Of a DNA stretch of 14,462 nt, positions 2,052-14,151 are shown in pieces. Below the pieces are notes generated by a model, which was not told the DNA's origin, made no database searches, and was given only the letters and a program-made list of their open reading frames with translations. How positions within the stretch are numbered: position 1 is the first letter of the stretch; each line of letters begins with the position of its first letter. The stretch is from a virus, in the IMG/VR virus record IMGVR_UViG_3300033177_000056; one strand, 5' to 3'. A program made the position numbers and the translations under genes.

Positions 2052-4316
2052 TCAACTTCCACACCAGCTCGCCTTGGCTTTAATGTAACCCGGAGTTTCC
2101 TTCAAAGCGAGCTCTAGCTCTTCACTGGACGAGTTCGAAGCCAGCTTGATCCCATCGTAGTACTCGGCTGTCATGTCACGGGTCACCGCGATACCATGGG
2201 CACTCAACAGGTAGCGCCCGACCTTCCTCGGAGATAGCGCAAAGTAGCCGTACTCGGCACAGTATTCCTTGTACTCCTTGTGTAATTCGGCTCTCCGGAC
2301 CTTATATCGTTCACCCTTTATAACCCTGTAATCAACACTAATAAAAGTTTCCAGGCTATTACACGACAGCCTGTACTCCCTGTGCGTCACATCCGCACCG
2401 ACAGGCGGAGTTAGGCCGTGTTTGAGATACTCAGTGTAGCCTTGGATGCACCAGCGCAGGACAGCGCTAAGCTCGTTGTCTAGCTTGTTTCTAAGCATCC
2501 TGTCTATTCGCCCCTTGAAGCTGACGTGGAATGGAATGACCTTGATCCTATCCCAGGCGGCTGCCGTCGTTTCAGTGATCAGTGGCCTGGTGTTACCCGC
2601 GAGCCAGATCGTGGCCTGGGGGTTGAACTGGATCTCCTTCTGGTACAGGGACCTGGCCCTGATAGGGTCGCCGCCTGTCCACGGTTTCAGTACTTCCATA
2701 TTTAAAACAGCGTCATCTCCCGGCTCACCAGCGGAGATGAATCGCTTACCACGGAGGCTAACCAAATCATCGCGTATATCTCTGGAATTCTTCTTCCGAA
2801 GGAATGTGTCCATGTTAGCGTGGATGCCATACTCTCCGCACACACGACGGATGGTCGTCTGGAAGACGGATTTCCCGTTGTCTCCATCACCGGTCGCATC
2901 GTCACAGTAGAAGAAACATTTCTGGGACATGTCCCCTGAGATCCCGTAGCCCACGCATCTCTGGACCCAGTTCCTGATCTCCTCGTCGGGCCAGACCTCC
3001 GTGACGAACTTGTCCCACCGGGCGCCAGTTGCGTCGGGGTCCAGCTTACATCCTCCGATCAAGGTGATGTAGTCCTCGCGCTTAGGAGGATAGCTGGTTG
3101 CGTTTCTGAAGTCGACCGTCCCACCTTCGAATGTCATCTTCATAGGATCGGAGTCAAGCTCCGCGATGCTGATGGCGATGTCAGGATCCCGGGACGCGAG
3201 CGTGAGCATAGCGTTGCGGCCATGCAATGTGTCCGACGATTTGGCCCAGCACGGACCCTTCTCTTCACCGGAGTCTGGCATCAATGAGTATAGGTAGTCA
3301 ATCACCTCGTTTGCCATCGCGTGAATGGTGCTAGCAGCGTCCTCAGCCCATCTGTTGCCATCCCAGATGTACCAGGTCTTCGTCTGGCTGCAGTAGCGGA
3401 CATTCTCTCCGTGCAGCTTCTTGAACCGCAGTGCATTACCACCTTCGGTATTTTCGAAGTTGTCGCCCTTCGGTTGGATGTCTTGTATCATACCGACATC
3501 GATCATTGTCTGGCGGAGCTTAGACTTGTGATCGCGATAGATGTCAGCACACGCTATAACACCAGCGAGTAGGAGGATCAACGATTCCTTACCACCACCT
3601 CGCTGGCACGCATGGCAGAACCATACCTCGTCTTCGACGTTGATAGATAGGCACGTGCCGCTGACCGATCCATGACATGGGACCACTCCCTTCCATTCGT
3701 TGCCACCGCCTACGGTTGGTTCCCACTTGAAGTGCTCGAGGATCTCTGTTATGCTGAACTGGACTTTCCGCTTCATCATGTTCTCTATGGCTGTCTTCAA
3801 AGATACGTGCTTCTTCGCGTTGGTTGAGTAGCCTGAGAAGATGTCCACTAGCTCTGACACCGATAGCACGCGAACCGGCGCAGGATTGACGATTTCCCGT
3901 TTCCCCCCGCGCCAATTGGGGGAGTTGGGAGCTACCGCATTCGCACCGTTGGACTTGATCTCCGCGATCTTGATACCATCTTCGTTGAAGATATTGAACG
4001 GCCCCACGTGTAGCTCGGGGCACTTGTAGTAATAGTGCCTGCTAACATCACCGATGCCATCGGTCAGTGTCTCTGGCATCTTGGTATCGAATGCTGCTCG
4101 CCCATCGATGTTGTCGATGTCAATGACACAAGCTCCTCCGAACCCAGTGCAGATCCCATACGAGATGCCATCAGGAATCTCCGTCTCAGTGAACGAGTTG
4201 TTGATCGTGTTCCACTCCGCGCCGACAGGATTCTTCCCACTGTTCTTGTCACCGAGGACGACAGGCTTGAGCTTGGTGAACCTGAACCGCTGGCCTTTCA
4301 ACTGATCCGGGATCAT
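2052..4316 (-). CDS. Fused primase-polymerase (PrimPol) / CHC2-like zinc finger / D5-P4-type SF3 helicase (754 aa)
   Basis: N-terminal PrimPol motifs: GGACVIDIDNID (DxD), SRHYYYK, AEIKSNGANAVAPNS. Zinc finger: CHGSVSGTCLSINVEDEVWFCHAC. D5_N-like segment: GGNALRFKKLHGENVRYCSQTKTWYIWDGNRW. Walker A: GDGDNGKS. Walker B region: GKRFISAGEPGDD. Confidence 0.9.
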   Translation of the reverse strand: MIPDQLKGQRFRFTKLKPVVLGDKNSGKNPVGAEWNTINNSFTETEIPDGISYGICTGFGGACVIDIDNIDGRAAFDTKMPETLTDGIGDVSRHYYYKCPELHVGPFNIFNEDGIKIAEIKSNGANAVAPNSPNWRGGKREIVNPAPVRVLSVSELVDIFSGYSTNAKKHVSLKTAIENMMKRKVQFSITEILEHFKWEPTVGGGNEWKGVVPCHGSVSGTCLSINVEDEVWFCHACQRGGGKESLILLLAGVIACADIYRDHKSKLRQTMIDVGMIQDIQPKGDNFENTEGGNALRFKKLHGENVRYCSQTKTWYIWDGNRWAEDAASTIHAMANEVIDYLYSLMPDSGEEKGPCWAKSSDTLHGRNAMLTLASRDPDIAISIAELDSDPMKMTFEGGTVDFRNATSYPPKREDYITLIGGCKLDPDATGARWDKFVTEVWPDEEIRNWVQRCVGYGISGDMSQKCFFYCDDATGDGDNGKSVFQTTIRRVCGEYGIHANMDTFLRKKNSRDIRDDLVSLRGKRFISAGEPGDDAVLNMEVLKPWTGGDPIRARSLYQKEIQFNPQATIWLAGNTRPLITETTAAAWDRIKVIPFHVSFKGRIDRMLRNKLDNELSAVLRWCIQGYTEYLKHGLTPPVGADVTHREYRLSCNSLETFISVDYRVIKGERYKVRRAELHKEYKEYCAEYGYFALSPRKVGRYLLSAHGIAVTRDMTAEYYDGIKLASNSSSEELELALKETPGYIKAKASWCGS

Positions 4317-4824: not shown

Positions 4825-4843
4825 ACACCCTATATAAGGGTGT
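4825..4843 (-). promoter_or_regulatory. TATA-like box (minus strand TTATATA, 4837-4831) embedded in the palindrome ACACCCT-ATATA-AGGGTGT; putative promoter/operator of the RHH-primase operon
   Basis: Perfect 7-nt inverted arms at 4825-4831 and 4837-4843 with a 5-nt spacer. The TATA centre at 4834 is 27 nt from the A of the ATG at 4807. Confidence 0.5.
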
Positions 4844-4988: not shown

Positions 4989-5237
4989 TCATAGAACAGC
5001 CATTCCTACCCCGATGGTCGCGGCAATCGCTATCACGCCACCCGCTGCGTATATGATGATGGTATGTCGCCAGACAGTTCCGTGAAGGTTGGACACCTCA
5101 CCGCGCATGGCAGCGAGGTTGGCGTCTTGCGCAGAGAACGAGTCATGCATGTCTGACCGGAGTCGAGATACTTCTGCTCGAATACTATCCATACTACCCT
5201 GGATGGCATTTAGTGTATTAAGTATCTGGTCGTTCAC
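4989..5237 (-). CDS. Small coiled-coil protein with a C-terminal transmembrane anchor (82 aa); function unknown, possibly holin-like or egress-related
   Basis: The C-terminus HTIIIYAAGGVIAIAATIGVGMAVL is hydrophobic. The N-terminal 55 aa look helical or coiled. The GTG start overlaps the upstream stop as GTGA (5237-5234), with GGTGGTGG upstream. Confidence 0.55.
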   Translation of the reverse strand: MNDQILNTLNAIQGSMDSIRAEVSRLRSDMHDSFSAQDANLAAMRGEVSNLHGTVWRHTIIIYAAGGVIAIAATIGVGMAVL

Positions 5238-5578
5238 TCGTCCACCACCGGAGCTAGGAACAGTGTCCTCATCGGGAGTTCCCCGTCGACGAGTGGCTCT
5301 GTTGTGAAGTTTAGTACCATGTAAGTAACGCCATCGAGCTTAAACGTATACAGTGGTCCGCCGGTGTGTGTGCGCGACGAGTCTATTTCTTCGTCAGTAA
5401 TGACCTCGACAGTCGACACGGTGAGCCTGCCGGCGTAGCTCATGACCTGCTGGTTCTTCCTGGTCCACCGAACCCAGATGATCTTCTGCCATCCAGGGAT
5501 AACCTCCACATACCCGCCAGCTCCCCGATGGGTAGCCTCCTTGATAGAGACTACCTGTTGGGTAAGATACTCATTCAT
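5234..5578 (-). CDS. Putative head-closure / head-tail joining protein (114 aa from ATG 5578)
   Basis: ATG 5578-5576 overlaps the upstream stop as ATGA and is preceded by GGTGAT. Its small beta-rich sequence (VVSIKEATHRGAGGYVEVIPGWQKIIWVRW..) and its position after the adaptor resemble SPP1 gp16 / HK97 gp9-class proteins. The ORF-track start at 5638 lies inside the upstream gene. Confidence 0.4.
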   Translation of the reverse strand: MNEYLTQQVVSIKEATHRGAGGYVEVIPGWQKIIWVRWTRKNQQVMSYAGRLTVSTVEVITDEEIDSSRTHTGGPLYTFKLDGVTYMVLNFTTEPLVDGELPMRTLFLAPVVDE

Positions 5579-6375
5579 ATGATCACCGCGTGGTCCAGGA
5601 AGTATCCTCGAAGCAACGTGACCGCAATGCTGGACCACATGGAATCGGGATCCTTGCCGACGAGCTCCTCGTGTAGACCGTCTTTGCCCATGGAGAAACT
5701 CCTAACTCCGTCTTGTCGCAGCCGGGCTCGGCGGGTGTCACCATACTTTAACATGACAAGAGCTTCCTCGCAACACGCCATCTTGACTACCAGTGGGACC
5801 TCGCCATCTCCCTCCCACTTCTCTGTCACGGGGTTGTAGAACTCCCGGGGGAACGCGTTGGTCTGTTCGCTGTCTACTTTCCGGCCACCGAACGGGAGCA
5901 TGTTGATCTTCCTGGTGGCCTCGCGCAGCAGGGGGAGACGCAGCCCAAGCCTGCTAGGAACGGGGTCAACTCCACCGTACAGATACGTCTTAGGAGTTTG
6001 GGCGATAAGCTCCGTGCCGTCGCCGGCGGACTCTGCTACAACGAGGGCAGCAGCATTTGCGTTTGCAGCTATCTGTGCGATCACGTCATCGTGGTCGGCG
6101 TCTTCACCATATTCGACTATGATACTTCGCCCGATGACGGATACCATCTCACCGAACTCCGCTGGTTCGAGCCTGACGTTGATCAGGTTGCCTTCAGCAC
6201 CTTCGGTGACCGCCGTGATAATCAGTGGCATGTCGGTCGATTCGACGGTGTTGCAATACATGTACGCAGCAGAGCCTTCCTCACCGGCGGAGAACCAGTC
6301 TAGTGCATACGGTTTGTTCTCAGGATCGAAGTACTCGTTCGCTTCGCTGAGCGTAGCATATTCTTCTGTAATCAT
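5575..6375 (-). CDS. Putative head-tail adaptor (gp6 / DnaT_2-like) with an inserted ~100-aa domain (266 aa from ATG 6375)
   Basis: The N-terminus [16 protein letters not shown] and the C-terminal [36 protein letters not shown] match the '..FPR....vP..v..A..e.A' pattern of head-tail connector/adaptor families. There is an ATGA overlap at 6375-6372. Confidence 0.5.
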
Positions 6376-7952
6376 GTTACCCATCCTACTAGATTGATAA
6401 TGGAGGACCCGTTGCCACCACGACTAAACGAAAACCGTTGTGATGCATTGGCTATAATGTACTGTTGATCGTTCGCGATCTGGGTTCCCCCGCGGTTGAT
6501 GTCGTGTGATGAACTCCCACCGTACTTACGGAGCCGCGTGGTGCCAGTCGATATGGTGAGCTTGTGAACTAAGATGATGGCAACAGCGCCTGCTGGGACG
6601 TTATTTGACACATCGACATCAACGAACGTGTTGCCAGCTCCGGACTGGGATCGGAACGTCACTGTGTCTCCGTTAGCCCAATTGTCTGCACTCGACACTG
6701 TAGTAACTGTATATGGCCCGGTCGCGACGTTTGTAGCAATGCGGAATGAATCCCGGGTGGAGTTGTAAACGAGAACCCTGCATGTGCCCTCGGGCATAAC
6801 TCCGGCTCCAGCCAACACGAAGCTCGTAGAGGTAGGATTACCGCTGATCGTAGTAGACAACACGTCGCTCGACGATCCAGCGATATACAGCACCTGAACT
6901 GGAGTTGCCAGGAGCTCCATGCCTCCACTGCCGGACGGTATATCACTGATCCGCATCCTGTAGTAGTCGCCGTCCCTGGCTACAAGAATGTAATCTCCGT
7001 CGTCGTAACCAGTGGTCCCAAGCCACCACATGTCATCGTCGTCTGCAGAACCAGTGGGTCCGGTGGGGCCGCTAGGCCCGGTCGGCCCGGGAACCGTGGA
7101 CGCGGCACCAGTCGGTCCTGTCGGTCCTGTCGGACCCGGTACGGTGGACCCAGCTCCGGTTGGCCCGGTGGGGCCAGACGGTCCAGTTGGTCCCTGACCG
7201 CCGATCGACGACATGAGTTGCCACCATTCGGCATCAGGCGGTTCCTTGTTTAGACAGTTGTCTTTGATACAAACGTAACTTGAACCACCACGGTTGACAG
7301 AGTCCTTCTTGTTATAGGTGGTACCACTGTCCCATGCGCCTAGGAACTCCAGGGCCCCTGCTTCGCCCTGAGCTCCGGTGGGGCCGGTCTTGCCGGTAGG
7401 CCCAGTTGGGCCAGTCACGGTAGAGTCAGCTCCAGTGGGTCCTGTTGCTCCTGCAGCGCCTGCAGCTCCGGTTGGGCCAGCGGGACCCGCCACGAGAGGA
7501 AGCTGACTAACCTGTGCCCTGAAGTAATCCCCGCCCCCATACCCGTGGATCCAGTCGTCAACAGATATGTCGCCGATCAGAACGTCTGCATCCATGAACG
7601 CCCCGCCACCGCCCCCTCCGGCAGGACCGGTAGCACCGGCTGGGCCGGTAGCACCTGTGGGACCTGTAGGGCCACCACCAAGTAGAGACGCTACTTGTGA
7701 CAAAGTGGCGGATCCGTAATACTTGGTCGAACCAATGTAGAATCCAACAAGAATCTTGTCGGTGGAATCAAGGGGCGCCACTGGGTCCAGGGTGAGGAAG
7801 TCGTCGTCGGGAGCACCACCCCCCCCAGCACCAGCTGGCCCGGTGGGTCCGGTCGATCCTGTCGGTCCCGATGGTCCGGTAGGTCCGGTGCGACCCCACG
7901 AGTCGTCGGTATGCCACTCGTTGCCATGTTGCCCGGGAAGGTCAGTCATCAT
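6372..7952 (-). CDS. Multi-domain collagen-like fibre protein (526 aa from ATG 7952): four G-X-Y segments, a CBM5/12-like module and a C-terminal beta-rich domain
   Basis: GPTGPxG runs lie at nt 7815-7892, 7602-7676, 7356-7490 and 7050-7202. The segment [38 protein letters not shown] (about 7212-7343) resembles a CBM5/12 chitin/carbohydrate-binding motif. There is an ATGA overlap at 7952-7949. Confidence 0.8.
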
Positions 7953-8974
7953 CCACCCCATATACCGCCCCAGCTACTGGCGGCTCCGATTTCCTCTTCT
8001 GACCCGAACGTACCCCATGCAGGTTCGTCTGCTATATATTTACGAGCGATGACCCAGAACACGTCTTCGGTGAACTGGGGGTAAGAACCGTACTTGGAGA
8101 ACTGGAACCCGAGCTTGTCGGCTCCTGACGCAGTGACGCCATTTATGGGTTTGAAACTCTCTGATACAAGTTCGATAGTGTAGTCGTTGCCGACCTTGGT
8201 TATACGATAGATGCCGGGGTACCAGGCGGCACTCTTGGATGTCGTGTACGCGAAGAATTCGTGTCCTGTATCGGACTTGGTAGACCCGGCCCATACGTAT
8301 GAGTAAGGGGAGCCATACGTAAGGTGGCTGGCCGACCCATGACCGTCGTCCGCCATCGATGCTACCAGACACTTCTCATTGCTGTCGTGGATAACCATGC
8401 CGGCGAGGCCCATCCCATGGGAACTTCCCGACCCGCCTGGGTGATATATAGACATGCTGTACTCGATGATTACGTTGGTGGGGATCGTCCATTTAGCAGT
8501 TAGCTGGTATGCGCCTTGGCCGGAGTTGCTGGGCCAATCACCCGGGTGACCAGTAACCCGGAGCTTACCACCACTTACAGACGACGTTAAATTATTGTTC
8601 TCCCACTTGTCTCCATCGAGGCTGGTCCCGGGGAAGTAATCGGCAAACTCGAACGTGTCGTCTGGATCAGACACATCGGTTGCTTCCGCGTCCCCGTAGT
8701 AAATATAATAATCCATCGCAGACGTAGCAACGTCTAGTCTGATCCAGAAACGCTGATATGTTGAATCACCGTATTCGGGGTCGCGTGCAAATGAAAGAGA
8801 GGTGCCAACCGAGTCCTTAAACAAGATGTCGTCTGGGAAACTCTCGCACTTGTCAGCAAGATGGACTTTTGTAGCAGTGTCGGTGCCGGTGCCTTTGTAG
8901 ACGTCGATCCACTTCTGGTACCCAGCTTGAGCAGCGTCTGCAGCTCCCAGCGGAAGTTTACGACGGTACTTCAT
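7949..8974 (-). CDS. DUF2341-like plus concanavalin-A/LamG-like domain protein (341 aa from ATG 8974); probable receptor-binding or virion-surface protein
   Basis: [20 protein letters not shown] resembles the DUF2341 signature (..YYGN..). It is followed by [16 protein letters not shown]....GGKLRV, typical of LamG/ConA-like jelly-rolls. There is an ATGA overlap at 8974-8971. It sits between the two fibre genes. Confidence 0.55.
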
Positions 8975-9717
8975 AGGAACGCCTTCCACTTATAGGGGTA
9001 ATCATCCGATGCCTTGATGTATACATTGGTAGCATCAGCACGAACCGTCACTGTACAATCATCGTCCTCGTCATCTCCGAGGGGGATGACTGCGACAAAC
9101 GGGGTGCCATTGAGCCCGTGAGCGATGGTCTGGAGGCTACCGGTGCCTTCAGACGTTCCGCCGGTAGCAGCAGAAAAGATCTCTGCTCCAGTCGGTCCTC
9201 GATCTCCAGTTGGTCCAGTTGGTCCAGTCGGTCCAGCCACGGTTGAATCGGCGCCAGTTGGTCCTCGATCTCCAGTTGGTCCTGTCATACCAGCTGGTCC
9301 GGTCGGTCCGGTCGGCCCCGTAGCCCCTCCCCCGCCAGCTCCGCCTGCCTGCATGACGAACTTGGTTCCGTCGTACACAAGGGCATCACCGACCTCCGGA
9401 GATGCAGTGGATACGGGGATCCCGGCGATCGACCGAACTCCATAGGGTTCATCGAGGGGGACGAGCGTATGCCACTCGTCACCCTCATACCAGTAGATCT
9501 CCCTGGCTTCCTTGTCGATCACTATGTTACCGGGTACCGGGTCTGCCGGCTTAGCTCCAACGATCGGGCGAAGAGGAGAGTCCGGGTCAAAGAATCCAGC
9601 TTGACGAACGCGCTCGACCGCCTCGTCGAAAGTTGGGGAAACCCGCCCGTGGAGCTCCGCGTAAGTGAGCGGCCTCTGAATCAAATTACGAAGGAGAATA
9701 TCTTCTGTAGTTACCAT
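8971..9717 (-). CDS. Collagen-like fibre protein (248 aa)
   Basis: [54 protein letters not shown] (nt 9187-9345) is flanked by globular N- and C-terminal domains. GGAGG lies 7 nt upstream of the ATG. Confidence 0.8.
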
Positions 9718-10738
9718 CCAATGCCTCCATCAATCTCTCCAGCATATTGGCACAACTATACCTGGATGCGTTTATAGACCCCTTTTCGACTATATCAGGG
9801 GGGGTTTCCAGGGCTAAAAGTACCTTATCGTGAATCTGCTTGTGGTCGAACGGATTGACCGTTAGCTCAGGGTAGCAGACACGGGCGGCCTCACAAGTAA
9901 CCGATGCGACCGTCGGGACGCCAAGCGCCGCAGCATCAACGACGCCTCGGCCGTAAGTGTAGTCTGGAGTTAGATCGAGGTTGATGGTAGCGCGAGACAA
10001 CAACGTTTCAATATACTGTTGATAATCGTGAGTAGGTACCACCCGATCAAACAGGGTCTCAAGATCTATTGTAGGAGGAATCTTGCCCGATACTCCGACG
10101 AGGAACCGCTTTAGTTTGATCGGGTGTAAACTGTAATAATAAGCTGACCACGTTGCGTGGTAGCGATGATACTGACACGTGGCCAGAGGCGGGTCAAACT
10201 TGGTCGCCCGCTTGCGGACAATCTCCAGGGCCTGTGTGTCGACTGGGTGAGGAATATGAAAAACCTTTCGATTGAGGTACCGCTCTAGCATGAAGGCACC
10301 GTACTCTTCGACATGGAATACGAGATCGGCGAGATCTAATTGTCGCTTCATCGTACGGGGTTCGATCGTCTCCCACATGCTGAGTGCATAGTCGATGTTT
10401 GCGATAATCTTGGTATCACTGTTACCGAGCGCCGAGCGAACGGCCTCGATGTAATGGGGATGGCCTGGAGTGTAGTTCACGTGGATGATGTCGTACTGCT
10501 CCAGGTAATCCCGTTCCAATGTGCAATACTCTTCTCCGACATGACCTGCTTTCCGGAAAGCGGTGAGCCATGACCTTATCCCAGACTGTATCAGCGGACC
10601 ACGGTAGATGGTGGGAATTGCATGGCAGCATATAGGAAGGGATGAATCGCTGTCCACCGAGATCACTTTTCTGCAGCTGGGACAGTACGCCTCATACTTA
10701 TCCGGAGTAAGGGGGCCGGAGAAGAGTAGATACTTCAT
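9686..10738 (-). CDS. GT-B fold glycosyltransferase (GT1/GT4-like), 350 aa from ATG 10738, with an N-terminal Cys-rich insert
   Basis: MKYLLFSG (Rossmann start), [35 protein letters not shown] and [30 protein letters not shown] follow the canonical GT4 pattern (..E.fG...lEAma.G.PVvas). The insert is [21 protein letters not shown]. There is an ATGA overlap at 10738-10735; the ORF-track start at 10843 lies inside the upstream gene. Confidence 0.6.
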
Positions 10739-11151
10739 CTGCTCTTGAACCCCATTACGCTTCCAGCGATCAGATAGTTGGACGAGTGCCCATGGGCGAT
10801 ATCCACTTCTATGGTGCCCTTCTTGTCGGCATCCTTCACCCACTTGAACCGCGCAGTCTCGAGCGGACCGAGAACTACTACGGATGCGTAGGTGGACAGG
10901 TCGCCGGTCGGCCGGCGCCAGGTGTAATCTCCAAGTCCAGACCTGGGTCCATCACCCGCTTTGACGGTGATACCATCGCTGGTGGAAGCCCCAGTAAGAT
11001 CGAACCGGAGCCAGAGGGCATCGTCGACATCACCAGACTCGATGACGAGACCGCTGGTGCTGGTGAACGTCTTTGGTGCAGCTATCTCATAGCCCATCTC
11101 GGGATCAGCAGCATACCCAAGATCAACGAAGGGGATCGGTGCTCTTGCCAT
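10735..11151 (-). CDS. Hypothetical beta-rich protein directly after the capsid gene (138 aa); possible capsid decoration or accessory protein
   Basis: The ATG is 1 nt after the MCP stop, with AGGTGA upstream. I recognise no motif; the suggested function rests on position only. Confidence 0.35.
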   Translation of the reverse strand: MARAPIPFVDLGYAADPEMGYEIAAPKTFTSTSGLVIESGDVDDALWLRFDLTGASTSDGITVKAGDGPRSGLGDYTWRRPTGDLSTYASVVVLGPLETARFKWVKDADKKGTIEVDIAHGHSSNYLIAGSVMGFKSR

Positions 11152-11152
11152 T

Positions 11153-12055
11153 TTAACTCACCTTCCTGCAGATCAGCATGGCAAGGGCATCCGGCCTGGC
11201 GACCTTGGCACCATACACATGGAGTCCCTTGACAGCATCTGCAAATCTCTTCTGAGGTCTATATGCCTCAACCTTGTTAACGCTGTCCGCGAAAGTCGTA
11301 GCAATTGGGGTGCCCGCTATTACATACGTCTGGGTCTTGGCCGACTCTCCGCCGGTCCCTGCACCGGTCGGGACGTTGTTACTTTCGAGAATATCGAAGC
11401 CAGCAGCACGCTTAACGAGACCGTTGAGCAGTGCATCCGTAGACGTGCTAGCAGCAGCATCGGAGAACCTCGGGTCACCAGACAGGCGCTCAACGAACCA
11501 GGGAGGTACAATAGCCCACCGACCCTGCTTGGGAACGTTGGCCTCAGACAGAACGGTACCAAGCTCCAGGAGATAATCCCATGCGGTGAGCTTCGTGCCG
11601 GCTTCGTCGGGCCGGAGATCCGGGACCTTAGCCGCGGCGGTCGTTCCGATAACGTTGCCAGCAGGCACGCTCGCCTTCATTATGCCAGCGATGTACTGGT
11701 CAGCAACGTCTGCAAGGTTATACGCGGACTGTTGCATAGCTCCGTTCATTAGGGTCGGTGCAGTCTGTGCCTGGTCGATATCATCGACAGCGAAGTTGAA
11801 GTATTTAGCCTGGGTGATCGAGAGCACACTCTGGGAGTCCTCGAGGGCCTCGGGGTCGGTTATGTCAGCGTCCTTGGTATAGTCACCGATGGTGATATCA
11901 CCGACAGACGTGATCTTAACCGTGCTGCCCTTGCCCTTGATCTCCCCCTCGTAGTCCCGATTGATCACGTTAGGCTGGCCGTACACGAGCGCCTTGTTGA
12001 GATTCTCAAGAAGTCTTGCGCTCCAGATGGTGGGAATGAATCCGTCAACTGCCAT
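11153..12055 (-). CDS. Major capsid protein, HK97 fold (P22-coat / N4-gp56-like family), 300 aa
   Basis: FIPTIWSARLLENLNKALVYGQPNVINRDYEGEIKGKGSTVKI and the C-terminal KGLHVYGAKVARPDALAML are characteristic of this capsid family. It directly follows the scaffold gene (TAA then ATG). Confidence 0.85.
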   Translation of the reverse strand: MAVDGFIPTIWSARLLENLNKALVYGQPNVINRDYEGEIKGKGSTVKITSVGDITIGDYTKDADITDPEALEDSQSVLSITQAKYFNFAVDDIDQAQTAPTLMNGAMQQSAYNLADVADQYIAGIMKASVPAGNVIGTTAAAKVPDLRPDEAGTKLTAWDYLLELGTVLSEANVPKQGRWAIVPPWFVERLSGDPRFSDAAASTSTDALLNGLVKRAAGFDILESNNVPTGAGTGGESAKTQTYVIAGTPIATTFADSVNKVEAYRPQKRFADAVKGLHVYGAKVARPDALAMLICRKVS

Positions 12056-12532
12056 TTATTTCACCGTACCTGCTTTCAACTGTGCAGATATATTTTCCCA
12101 ATCCGCGTTGACCTGTTCGGGTGTCATGGACTTTAGCTCCTGCGCGGTGTAGACGCGGGGCGGTGTGTTGGTAGTCCCTGGATTGGTGACTCCACCTACA
12201 GCGGTTTGCTTGACTCCTAAACTGGCCACCAGCTTGTCGGCACTGGCGGCCATCTCCTCCTTCGTTGATCCAACGACAAACTCGACCAACTCCGTGGGGA
12301 GTCCCTTGGCTGCGGCAATCTCTGCTCGCGTTCGCGTTACGGCAGACTGCGCCAACTCCCCCTCCAGCTTGGCGAGGGCGGCCCGCTCAGAAACAAGTTT
12401 CTCCTCCAGGTTAGTTATCCGCTTAAGAAGATCAGGGTCCATAGCGTTACGCGCTTCTCTGTCGCGAGCTAGACGTTCCTGAACTATGCGGTTAACATCT
12501 TCCTGTGTAAACTTCCTATCGTCTTCTGCCAT
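12056..12532 (-). CDS. Capsid scaffolding protein (DUF4355/GP20-like), 158 aa
   Basis: The FTQEDVNRIVQERLARDRE motif, coiled-coil character, C-terminal MTPEQVNADWENISAQL and its position between portal and MCP. Confidence 0.8.
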   Translation of the reverse strand: MAEDDRKFTQEDVNRIVQERLARDREARNAMDPDLLKRITNLEEKLVSERAALAKLEGELAQSAVTRTRAEIAAAKGLPTELVEFVVGSTKEEMAASADKLVASLGVKQTAVGGVTNPGTTNTPPRVYTAQELKSMTPEQVNADWENISAQLKAGTVK

Positions 12533-12586
12533 AATGCACCAACCTTAACGGCGGTTGTAACCTACACTGTATTATCGGGTTGAACA

Positions 12587-12600
12587 TATTTAAACTTTCG
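12587..12600 (-). promoter_or_regulatory. Archaeal-type BRE/TATA-like element: minus strand CGAAAG-TTTAAATA; putative promoter of the scaffold-capsid-fibre operon
   Basis: The minus strand reads ccGAAAGTTTAAATAtg, and the portal stop TAA lies within it. It is about 58 nt upstream of the scaffold ATG, which predicts a ~30-nt leader carrying GGTtGGTG. Confidence 0.5.
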
Positions 12601-14020
12601 GAACCAGGTCTGCCCTGGCCTGGCCCGCGTACTCAGACTGTTCTCGAGGGGGCTCGCCGATCTCCAGGGCTATGCGGACAAGCTCCGCCCTTGCCTCGGC
12701 CTCGGTGCATTCGTCAAGCCGCCGTATGGCACTCTCCTTGCTGGTCAGCCCGGAGTTCTTCCTGGCCTGTTCTATACGGGCGTCCTCGAGCACGTCGCGG
12801 GGCAAACCGTCGTTGAACTTGATCTTGTCTATCTTAACCTCGATAGCTCCAGGTATCCTACCGATTACATCCAGTTTCGAAGCGGCTTGTAAAGCGCGGC
12901 GGAGTGGAGTCTCAAACGCCAGTCTGATCCGGTTGGTACGACTGATCGTCCTCACCAGCAGCCGGCGCCACGCGGATCCGGTAACCGCCTGACCGGTCGG
13001 GAACCGGCCGAGAGCAGCGGGAGATAAGTCAGTAACATGATACAACATGTCCGTAATAACCTCCATCTCCTTGAAACTCGACGTGAGCTTGCCGTCCCAC
13101 TCGATGTACTGGGGGGGCTGGGCATCTCCACGAAGAGGGATGTAGCGGCCGTGGATCGAAACCTTGCGGGTACCGTCGGTCGGGTTGGTTTCAATCATAC
13201 TGTCTGGACCGGCCATTATGGGGCGGCTATGGATGTCAAGCACGTTCATGATGCGGACCATCCTGGACTCCAACTCCTTGACCAGATTGGCCATCACTTC
13301 GAAATCGGAAGTGCCGTACACATCTCCGCGTCGTCTGGAGTTGATGGCATAAAACACCAACGGATAACCTATGGAGTGGTGCTGGATTGGCTGGACGCCA
13401 ACATACTTCACGCTCATGTCCAGAGGGACCTGGTGATCGATGGTGTTGCCGTTCATCCACCAGAGCTGGTGCTCGACCGAATCGTCCCTGTGGATCTCCA
13501 CCTTGAGCAGCCTCGCGTGAGCTCCGCCTATCTGCTCGGTGAACACCCAGGCCAGAACATGCGCCCTTATATTAGTGACGTCATCGGGATCCACGATAGG
13601 GAACCAGATGCTCGGGTCAACATACCCTATCCGACTACCGCCATTGAACGACACCGAGTAGACACACTCGCCGAACTTGCAGTAATCTCTCGCAAGGTTG
13701 TGAAGCTCCTGGTACAGGTTGCTCCGGTCAACGATAGCTCCAAGCCCGTCCGGGAGGATGGGAGCTTCGCCAAACATGTAGTCAGCATATATGTCCGCCT
13801 CGACATGGAACCAGTTGAAGTCCAGAACCTTCGGGGCGCCGAGGGACTGGAGCATCATGTCAGCACGTTCAAGGTCAGTCATGGACCAGAGCTCCGGCCA
13901 CAACTTCTGGTGATCACCGTCGTACATCATCTGGTATTTCTCGTACCGCCTGAGCCGATCGTTCTCCTCGGGAGGGGGGAACTGCTTGGTCGGGGCTAGC
14001 CAGGACAGATCTGTCAGCAT
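12590..14020 (-). CDS. Portal protein (476 aa)
   Basis: Its size, its position between terL and the scaffold, and the N-terminal PPPEENDRLRRYEKYQMMYDGDH resemble SPP1-gp6-type portals. Confidence 0.8.
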   Translation of the reverse strand: MLTDLSWLAPTKQFPPPEENDRLRRYEKYQMMYDGDHQKLWPELWSMTDLERADMMLQSLGAPKVLDFNWFHVEADIYADYMFGEAPILPDGLGAIVDRSNLYQELHNLARDYCKFGECVYSVSFNGGSRIGYVDPSIWFPIVDPDDVTNIRAHVLAWVFTEQIGGAHARLLKVEIHRDDSVEHQLWWMNGNTIDHQVPLDMSVKYVGVQPIQHHSIGYPLVFYAINSRRRGDVYGTSDFEVMANLVKELESRMVRIMNVLDIHSRPIMAGPDSMIETNPTDGTRKVSIHGRYIPLRGDAQPPQYIEWDGKLTSSFKEMEVITDMLYHVTDLSPAALGRFPTGQAVTGSAWRRLLVRTISRTNRIRLAFETPLRRALQAASKLDVIGRIPGAIEVKIDKIKFNDGLPRDVLEDARIEQARKNSGLTSKESAIRRLDECTEAEARAELVRIALEIGEPPREQSEYAGQARADLVPKV

Positions 14021-14043
14021 ACTGGTTATTATACCTCTGATGG

Positions 14044-14050
14044 TATTTAA
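14044..14050 (-). promoter_or_regulatory. TATA-like box (minus strand TTAAATA) centred 27 nt upstream of the portal ATG
   Basis: The geometry matches the RHH gene: TATA centre at 14047, ATG at 14020, and no correctly spaced SD. A bacterial-looking TATAAT (14033-14028) is also present, so the reading is ambiguous. Confidence 0.4.
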
Positions 14051-14065
14051 GGCCGCTTGGGTCGG

Positions 14066-14072
14066 AAAAAAA
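14066..14072 (-). terminator. T7 run (minus strand) after terL without a preceding hairpin; archaeal-style oligo-T terminator candidate
   Basis: The minus strand reads ccccaaaTTTTTTTccgacc, about 80 nt 3' of the terL stop. I could fold no stem-loop immediately upstream. Confidence 0.4.
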
Positions 14073-14075
14073 TTT

Positions 14076-14151
14076 GGGGTTATGTTGGTGTGTGTGGTGA
14101 TGGTGTGCGTGCTACCTACTTGTTATGCTGTGCCGTGTTGCGGTGTGTGCC
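14076..14151. other. Strand-asymmetric G+T-rich (plus strand) / C+A-rich (transcribed strand) low-complexity tract between terL and portal
   Basis: ggggttatgttggtgtgtgtggtgatggtgtgcgtgctacctacttgttatgctgtgccgtgttgcggtgtgtgc has 60 of 75 bases as G or T by my count. Confidence 0.6.

Follow-up and report, generated by a model that had tools for sequence, protein, structure and literature searches.

Genome and the portal-scaffold junction

The window (the whole stretch of DNA that was analysed, 14,462 nt) carries a viral genome that is cut inside the large terminase gene (terL) and comprises 14,335 unique bp. The same sequence has been assembled at least 22 times from digester metagenomes, as 14,476-bp contigs with differing circular permutations. 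Since the terminal repeats, 141 nt in the 14,476-bp contigs and 127 nt in the window, both lead to 14,335 unique bp, the genome is complete and either circular or circularly permuted. The source sample is an anaerobic digester (Wageningen digesters, IMG 3300033169-78), and the genome as a whole is absent from INPHARED.

All genes lie on the minus strand, with only four non-coding gaps that add up to 816 nt. The order is p175 (terS-like), terL, portal, scaffold, capsid, p138, p350, a collagen-like protein of 248 aa, a DUF2341 protein of 341 aa, a second collagen-like protein of 526 aa, an adaptor-like protein of 266 aa, p114 and p82, followed after a gap by an RHH protein (164 aa), a PrimPol-D5 primase-helicase (754 aa) and an iteron region. 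The head genes are those of Caudoviricetes, namely an HK97-fold capsid (PF25209/PF19821, phrog_267), a portal (PF05133, phrog_533) and a large terminase (PF03237/PF04466, phrog_2). Searches of the window with Pfam, PHROGs and further protein databases recognised no tail tube, sheath, nozzle or tape measure, and the only tail-related matches are those of the adaptor-like protein (phrog_477, E = 4e-5, weak) and 'fibre' matches of the collagen repeats. Neither an endolysin or other peptidoglycan-directed gene nor a sigma-like or gp55-like gene was detected in the 14.3 kb, and the window gave no hits in tRNA or Rfam searches.

Two parts of the genome deserve a separate description. The protein p350 (9686-10738, minus strand) has a GT-B-like C-terminal motif of 16 residues and a weak PDB match (4xso, E = 0.44), with no family match. 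Relatives carry GT-A glycosyltransferase genes (Glycos_transf_2 + TPR; L010 2453-3499, L012 11721-12806 and L019 5213-6220), and p350 was rejected as a relative of these, no relationship being found on comparison. ATGGTAGAA(C) recurs at least seven times in a non-coding region of low GC (1606-2051, 45%) between the primase gene and p175, which also has other palindromes besides a perfect 23-nt inverted repeat (1732-1754 / 1852-1874). This region is probably the replication origin, and the 135/142-aa ORF called within it is probably spurious. The closest primase outside the family (P0021, 45% identity) is encoded by an element of far greater size from the same digester samples (L019-L025, e.g. 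NPIE01000771.1, 76,930 bp). This element also encodes a Helicase_C_2 protein, a DUF7557 protein and a GT-A+TPR glycosyltransferase, and is likely another archaeal virus or plasmid with a common replication module.

The features at the portal-scaffold junction, all on the minus strand, are the following:

14020..12590, minus: portal gene, 476 aa, SPP1-type (PF05133, phrog_533)
12600..12595, minus: BRE-like purine-rich hexamer CGAAAG, directly upstream of the TATA box
12594..12587, minus: TATA box TTTAAATA (box A of methanogen promoters), exact match to TTTAWATA
12586..12564, minus: spacer from TATA box to start, unconserved in alignment A1 (8 relatives), in which TATA box and leader are conserved
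12563/12562, minus: predicted transcription start at the A/G of tAGG, 24 nt past the TATA box and 30-31 nt before the scaffold ATG
12562..12533, minus: 30-nt 5' leader GGTTAC-CAACC-GCCGTTAA-GGTTG-GTGCATT, conserved across relatives
12557..12540, minus: leader hairpin CAACC-GCCGTTAA-GGTTG (5' arm 12557..12553, loop 12552..12545, 3' arm 12544..12540), with compensating stems
12540..12537, minus: SD-like GGTG, abutted by the hairpin
12532-12056, minus: scaffold gene (DUF4355)
12055-11153, minus: capsid gene (HK97-type)
12532..4989, minus: putative late structural operon (scaffold, capsid, p138, p350, collagen-like proteins, DUF2341 protein, adaptor-like protein, p114, p82), its extent judged from gene packing

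The minus strand around the motif reads ...ggttcCGAAAGTTTAAATAtgttcaacccgataatacagtgtaGGTTACAACCGCCGTTAAGGTTGGTGcattATGgca (longer stretch, ggttcCGAAAGTTTAAATAtgttcaacccgataatacagtgtaGGTTACAACCGCCGTTAAGGTTGGTGcattATG), with the portal stop TAA (12592..12590) lying inside the TATA box and the scaffold ATG at 12532. The initial annotation had described the 14-mer as a near-consensus archaeal BRE+TATA element with the portal stop embedded in it. Its coordinates and sequence are confirmed on the minus strand, and the TATA part stands as an exact TTTAWATA match; the BRE part is weaker than stated, being purine-rich with a sequence that is not conserved in relatives.

TTTAWATA has two exact matches in the window, both on the minus (coding) strand, against 0.15 expected, and 4 of 200 shuffles reach this number. 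The coding strand has five sites within one mismatch, three of which fall in the three short gaps at promoter positions (369 nt of 14,335). The full 14-mer is uninformative alone, since 69 of 200 shuffles contain at least one match when up to three mismatches are allowed. The second exact TTTAAATA (2699-2706, minus strand) is located in the primase-helicase gene with no long ATG-opened ORF within 80 nt downstream, and could be a chance occurrence or an internal promoter.

The probable scaffold promoter and its leader in relatives

Portal homologues that are 45-51% identical define a small-genome family (L010, L012, L014, L026, L028 and L029, on contigs of 11-17 kb), and capsid identity to relatives is 64-84%. 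The relatives were reached through a protein database search, and further members through an alignment-based capsid scan of IMG/VR; an IMG/VR scan with the portal protein alone found no relatives. For L014 (5729-9678) and L015, the gene calls give terL, a gap of ~1.2 kb, two minus-strand ORFs and only a 291-aa C-terminal fragment of the portal. In a tblastn search, however, the whole of the window portal finds its match at L014 8188-9672, and the portal calls of both contigs look wrong.

In the comparison of 14 distinct loci, the box mostly keeps its place. In 11 of them a TATA 8-mer with at most one mismatch to TTTAWATA ends 21-25 nt before the start of the conserved leader, for which shuffles give a null of ~0.03 per sequence; the other three have no such 8-mer in the expected interval. 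The TATA-like 8-mers found upstream of the scaffold gene in the family are TTTAAATA, TTTATATA, TATAAATA, CTTAAATA, TCTAAATA, TTGATATA or AATAAATA, and the sublineage resembling a provirus of Methanothrix soehngenii GP6 (see below) has only degenerate AT/T-rich boxes (TTTGTATA, TTTTTAAT). The layout in relatives is a TATA-like 8-mer, 21-25 nt that do not align, the leader beginning (t/c)A-GG(T/C)T.AC, and then the ATG. 5' of the box, the window and L028 have the portal gene, L010, L012 and L029 a glycosyltransferase gene, and L014 and L026 a small ORF; because this upstream gene differs among members, the box belongs with the scaffold gene and not with the portal stop codon.

In all relatives conservation sets in at the predicted start. 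This agrees with the earlier proposal of a start about 30 nt upstream of the scaffold ATG and of a leader carrying an SD, as the conserved leader begins 30-31 nt before the ATG and holds the SD-like GGTG. Within the spacer, an AT-rich GATAAT at about -13..-8 may help melting. The aligned relatives contain no conserved -35/-10 pair, and their -10 region varies. At the BRE position most of them are A/purine-rich (CAATGA, GAATACG, AAGAAGT, GAATAAC, GAAAAG) while the sequence itself varies, so that the BRE, only loosely conserved, appears to be the least secure part of the motif.

Among larger relatives in IMG/VR with capsids ~50% identical (L083, L084, L103 and L107), TTTAAATA or TTTATATA is found 23-24 nt before the same leader start, and the archaeal promoter layout therefore reaches beyond the small-genome family. 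These four have in common a further upstream motif, ACAA(T/A)AAGGACAAA, which could be a regulator site.

The leader can fold into a hairpin whose stem changes while its pairing is kept. At least nine different compensating stems were found (CGGCC/GGTTG, CAACT/AGTTG, CGACT/AGTTG, CGAT/ATCG, CGAAG/CTTCG, CGAG/CTCG, CTGG/CCAG, CGGA/TCCG and CGAAGGG/TCCTTTG), with the loop core C(G/A)TNAA kept. An anchored-stem test gave a stem of at least 4 bp in each of the 13 family leaders (mean 5.0). With the 3' flank shuffled 2000 times the figure was 3.15±0.34, and none of these shuffles reached the result of the real leaders. RNAalifold run on the MAFFT alignment gave no leader structure, because MAFFT misregisters the hairpin arms; no Rfam family matches the leader. 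G.U pairs fit the sense strand only, which suggests an RNA hairpin rather than a DNA palindrome.

The hairpin is present in L010, L012, L014, L026, L028, L031, L043, L045, L083, L084, L088, L102, L103, L107, L035 and L027. The last two are the bacterial phage D6E (L035) and a Firmicutes-type contig (L027), in which a similar hairpin (loop ACGTTAAAC) precedes the scaffold gene. It is thus common to archaeal-type and bacterial-type viruses having the DUF4355 scaffold / Phage_capsid_4 module, and for this reason is part of the capsid module rather than of the promoter. A role as a translational operator, for example in scaffold autoregulation, is plausible by analogy with P22, where autoregulation by the scaffold protein gp8 has been described.

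In addition to the scaffold promoter, two other operons of the window have a box, and a candidate terminator lies after terL:

14072..14066, minus: T7 run after terL, in a conserved AAATTTT motif
14051..14044, minus: second predicted promoter, CTTAAATA, ending 23 nt before the portal ATG (14020), no SD, leaderless geometry
4838..4831, minus: third predicted promoter, CTTATATA, ending 23 nt before the RHH regulator ATG (4807), no SD, for a leaderless early operon RHH-primase

A TATA box occurs 22-24 nt before the portal ATG without an SD in 6 of 7 genomes, and at the same distance from the ATG of the RHH-type first early gene in all five genomes compared. The start codons are backed by the conserved portal N-termini MLT(D/N)..(W/F)L and by the RHH-type early proteins. 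The genes of the late operon abut or overlap, and their internal starts are preceded by SD-like GGTG/GGAGG, unlike those of the portal and RHH genes. A box 22-24 nt before the start codon without an SD is the standard archaeal leaderless arrangement. This geometry fits no bacterial element, because in bacterial leaderless mRNA the -10 sits about 7 nt before the ATG. When the distances between TATA boxes and ATG-opened ORFs were collected in a histogram without use of annotation, archaeal and bacterial control genomes could not be told apart, and position-specific tests on homologous upstream regions were used instead.

T4-T7 runs occur at the same place in five relatives, and the T7 run is a probable archaeal oligo-T terminator of the p175-terL unit. 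The terL-portal gap (14021-14151) also contains a G-poor, C/A-rich tract (caccatcaccacacacacc...) that might be a packaging site. In L010, L012, L026, L028 and L029 this gap has (TA)n runs too, with the AAATTTT motif upstream of the portal TATA box.

Kinship with a provirus of Methanothrix

The first named capsid homologue in a large protein database (69% identical) is encoded on a 3,008,626-bp contig annotated as Methanothrix soehngenii, which is the closed chromosome of M. soehngenii GP6 (CP002565.1). It belongs to a provirus of ~14-15 kb (locus L031, CP002565.1 1679359-1700246; provirus span about 1,686,000-1,700,246 and beyond) that adjoins pheS/pheT and a CBS-domain gene. Its genes encode an integrase, a DUF7343 protein, scaffold, capsid, two small proteins, an adaptor-like protein of 266 aa, a D5 primase, a terS-like protein, terL, portal and Mu F. 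The scaffold, capsid, small head proteins, adaptor-like protein, primase, terS-like protein, terL and portal have their counterparts in the window, as do the similar size and the conserved leader before the scaffold gene (GGTGACGACTTCCATAAAAGTTGG). The provirus differs in having the integrase and the Mu F-like protein, a GC content of 40%, more degenerate TATA boxes and a portal gene with a leader containing GGAG, and it is without the p350, two collagen-like proteins and DUF2341 protein of the window.

The identities between window and provirus are 69% for the capsid, 46% for the portal (E = 2e-140), 44% for terL, 48% for p138, 35% for the scaffold and 31% for the adaptor-like protein, whereas the best bacterial phages in INPHARED reach only 51%, 26.5% and 32% for capsid, portal and terL. 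Among cultured phages the capsid is closest to Geobacillus phage D6E (51%) and Methanosarcinales virus vir515 (47.5%), the portal to Firmicutes phages (at most 26.5%) and terL to Streptomyces phages (32%), and the primase is ~30% identical to both Bacillus phages and a Methanoculleus virus. The sole phage-database match of the DUF2341 protein is a weak one to a Methanofastidiosa virus (E = 8e-3). Overall these matches, at 23-51% identity, are a mixture of phages of Firmicutes and Actinobacteria with a few viruses of methanogens, and leave the host undecided. The names in the primase cluster are equally mixed (Dehalobacter, Syntrophorhabdus, Eubacteriales, Methanothrix, Euryarchaeota) and uninformative for the host. 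Thus the taxonomic spread of the best capsid, terL and primase matches, which the initial annotation had named as a check, is ambiguous where cultured phages are concerned, and in the large protein database it leads from the capsid to M. soehngenii.

The GP6 provirus is also found as free contigs of ~14.3-15.4 kb in metagenomes and IMG/VR (L037, L033, L034, L046, L050 and L051). One of these, L037 (14,343 bp), has head, connector, packaging, primase and integrase genes only, with no fibre or tail genes. A scan of genome contigs returned only two, both from MAGs: L037 (DDXZ01000040.1), labelled 'Dehalococcoidia bacterium UBA2247', and L038 (CAYVMJ010000022.1), labelled 'Methanolinea sp.'. Because each is 88-89% identical in DNA to the GP6 provirus, these labels are unreliable and probably reflect mis-binning, and neither Dehalococcoidia nor Methanolinea was taken to name the host.

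Since the family includes a provirus integrated in M. soehngenii, the host is read as an archaeon. From these comparisons an archaeal host appears well supported at the family level, in keeping with the initial proposal: the closest named relative sits in a closed archaeal chromosome, and several of its proteins are much closer than those of any bacterial phage. For the lineage of the window itself, Methanothrix is the most likely host, as judged from the family relative, the promoter architecture and the habitat. Hwang et al. cite IMG 3300033169 together with the Methanothrix genome study of Gagliano et al., and report that viruses in these digesters are matched by spacers of both Anaerolineales and Methanosarcinales.

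Probable promoter function and possible nature of the family

The promoter type is textbook archaeal and already known; what is new is the genome that carries it. The locus is like the archaeal basal promoter (TTTAWATA box A + BRE; methanogens, Sulfolobus, haloarchaea) in that TTTAAATA would be centred about -27/-28 from the predicted start, a purine-rich hexamer lies directly upstream, the start would be a purine after a pyrimidine, and leaderless variants with the box 22-24 nt before the ATG occur at other operons of the same genome. It differs in that the BRE is unconserved among relatives and the box overlaps the stop codon of the upstream gene; the window promoter is predicted from its sequence. 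We consider it likely that the 14-mer is the core of an archaeal-type TATA/BRE promoter driving the capsid genes, and that the host is an archaeon.

We infer that TBP would bind TTTAAATA (12594..12587) and TFB the purine-rich CGAAAG upstream of it, recruiting RNAP, and that transcription would start ~24 nt downstream of the box at 12563/12562. The transcript would carry the conserved 30-nt leader, with the hairpin beside the GGTG SD, and then the packed scaffold-capsid-fibre-adaptor operon from 12532 to about 4989, and the portal would be made from its own leaderless promoter with a weaker box. Because the scaffold promoter straddles the portal stop codon, scaffold and capsid could be made in far larger amounts than the portal.

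On another reading, the AT-rich sequence at the portal stop would be there by chance and have no promoter function, and scaffold and capsid would depend entirely on transcripts reading through from the portal promoter; this is very improbable. The DNA between genes is richer in AT than coding DNA, 14-mers with up to three mismatches are common in shuffles, and the exact box within the primase gene (2699..2706) has no obvious role. Against these points, the 8-mer is kept at its distance from the leader in 11 of 14 loci, despite a differing upstream gene and spacer and a null of only ~0.03 per sequence. Could the conserved block be mainly a site for a virus regulator such as the RHH protein, or a T4-late-type element, rather than a basal TBP site? 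An RHH regulator is indeed encoded as the first early gene, T4 late promoters read TATAAATA, which is among the family's boxes, and some wider-clade relatives have the further upstream motif described above. However, the early gene itself and the portal gene also have this type of box in front of them at the same spacing, which argues for a general promoter element, and a sigma-like or gp55-like gene is missing from the 14.3 kb. This reading is therefore unlikely, and a regulator could instead act on top of the TBP site.

A bacterial promoter in a bacterial phage, with Firmicutes, Chloroflexi or similar hosts, would have to use TTTAAA as a poor -35 together with GATAAT (12574..12569) as the -10, or the -10 only. 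GATAAT does lie 7 nt before the predicted start, but the 14-nt spacer to TTTAAA is too short (16-18 nt are needed), the pair is found in the window only, and in relatives it is the -30 box and not the -10-like hexamer that is conserved. A sigma-70 scan of the window called 9 sites against 10.1 expected, none of them upstream of the scaffold ATG, which bears out the earlier remark that no good -35/-10 pair could be placed here. Intrinsic (hairpin-plus-T) terminators are likewise not enriched in the window (5 against 9.1 expected), no endolysin was found, and the boxes 22-24 nt before the portal and early-gene ATGs fit no bacterial element. As for the host, many homologues of the capsid, portal, terL and primase occur in phages of Firmicutes and Actinobacteria (capsid, portal and primase at 25-51%), one free 14.3-kb relative was binned in a Dehalococcoidia MAG, and the digester viruses of Hwang et al. 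are matched by Anaerolineales as well as Methanosarcinales spacers. The contig behind the MAG label is nearly identical to the GP6 provirus, which speaks against that label, and the chromosome that harbours the closest relative is archaeal. We regard a bacterial origin of the promoter and its phage as highly unlikely.

The window can be compared with the known methanogen head-tailed (pro)viruses (compendium of Medvedeva et al.; PMC11576556; e.g. vir515, BK063672), with which it has in common the HK97-type capsid (47.5% identical in vir515), the archaeal host and the anaerobic bioreactor habitat. The Methanothrix head-tailed (pro)viruses in the accessible part of Table S6 of PMC11576556 are 32-97 kb long and have tape measure and tail genes, whereas the window genome has 14.3 kb without a recognisable tail tube, sheath or tape measure. 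The small-family IMG/VR contigs are absent from those tables of PMC11576556 that were examined. No description of the GP6 provirus or of the small family was found in the literature searched, although the Medvedeva 2023 compendium may contain one. The initial annotation had spoken of an unusually small archaeal head-tail virus: small it is, being complete at 14,335 bp against 32-97 kb, while the 'head-tail' label is unproven, the searches having turned up no recognisable gene for a tail tube, sheath, tape measure or nozzle.

This gene content brings to mind another class of elements. Bacterial capsid-forming phage-inducible chromosomal islands (cf-PICIs) were reportedly described by Alqurainy et al. 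in 2023 and are said to be ~14-15 kb in size, with their own terS/terL, portal, scaffold, capsid, head-tail connectors and primase and no tail, a gene content that the present elements appear to share. On gene content, the GP6-like lineage, which also has an integrase, seems to resemble such bacterial capsid-forming satellites. There are differences too, since the cf-PICIs are bacterial while the present elements are archaeal, and the window lineage is without an integrase and has fibre-like collagen-repeat genes.

The kind of element is known, and its member in the window is new. We tentatively suggest that the undescribed Methanothrix-associated capsid-forming family of ~14-15 kb comprises the smallest autonomous head-tail viruses of archaea, or else the first archaeal equivalents of tail-borrowing satellites, and that the hairpin operator, with its covarying stem and CGTNAA loop, is a cross-domain RNA element, possibly serving scaffold autoregulation.

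Methanothrix ranks among the chief methane producers that consume acetate in digesters, wetlands and rice paddies, and we know of no cultured Methanothrix virus. Similarity of capsid, portal and primase is ambiguous as to the host, and a promoter signature read from sequence alone would assign this 14.3-kb genome, along with its relatives, to an archaeon. It also yields a predicted transcription map of a minimal archaeal capsid-forming element, with three TATA promoters, two leaderless operons and one oligo-T terminator. The genomes of the family are not even half as long as those of the Methanothrix head-tailed viruses in the accessible part of the published list, and the family may prove a tractable system for studying how archaeal viruses assemble and whether capsid-forming satellites exist in archaea.
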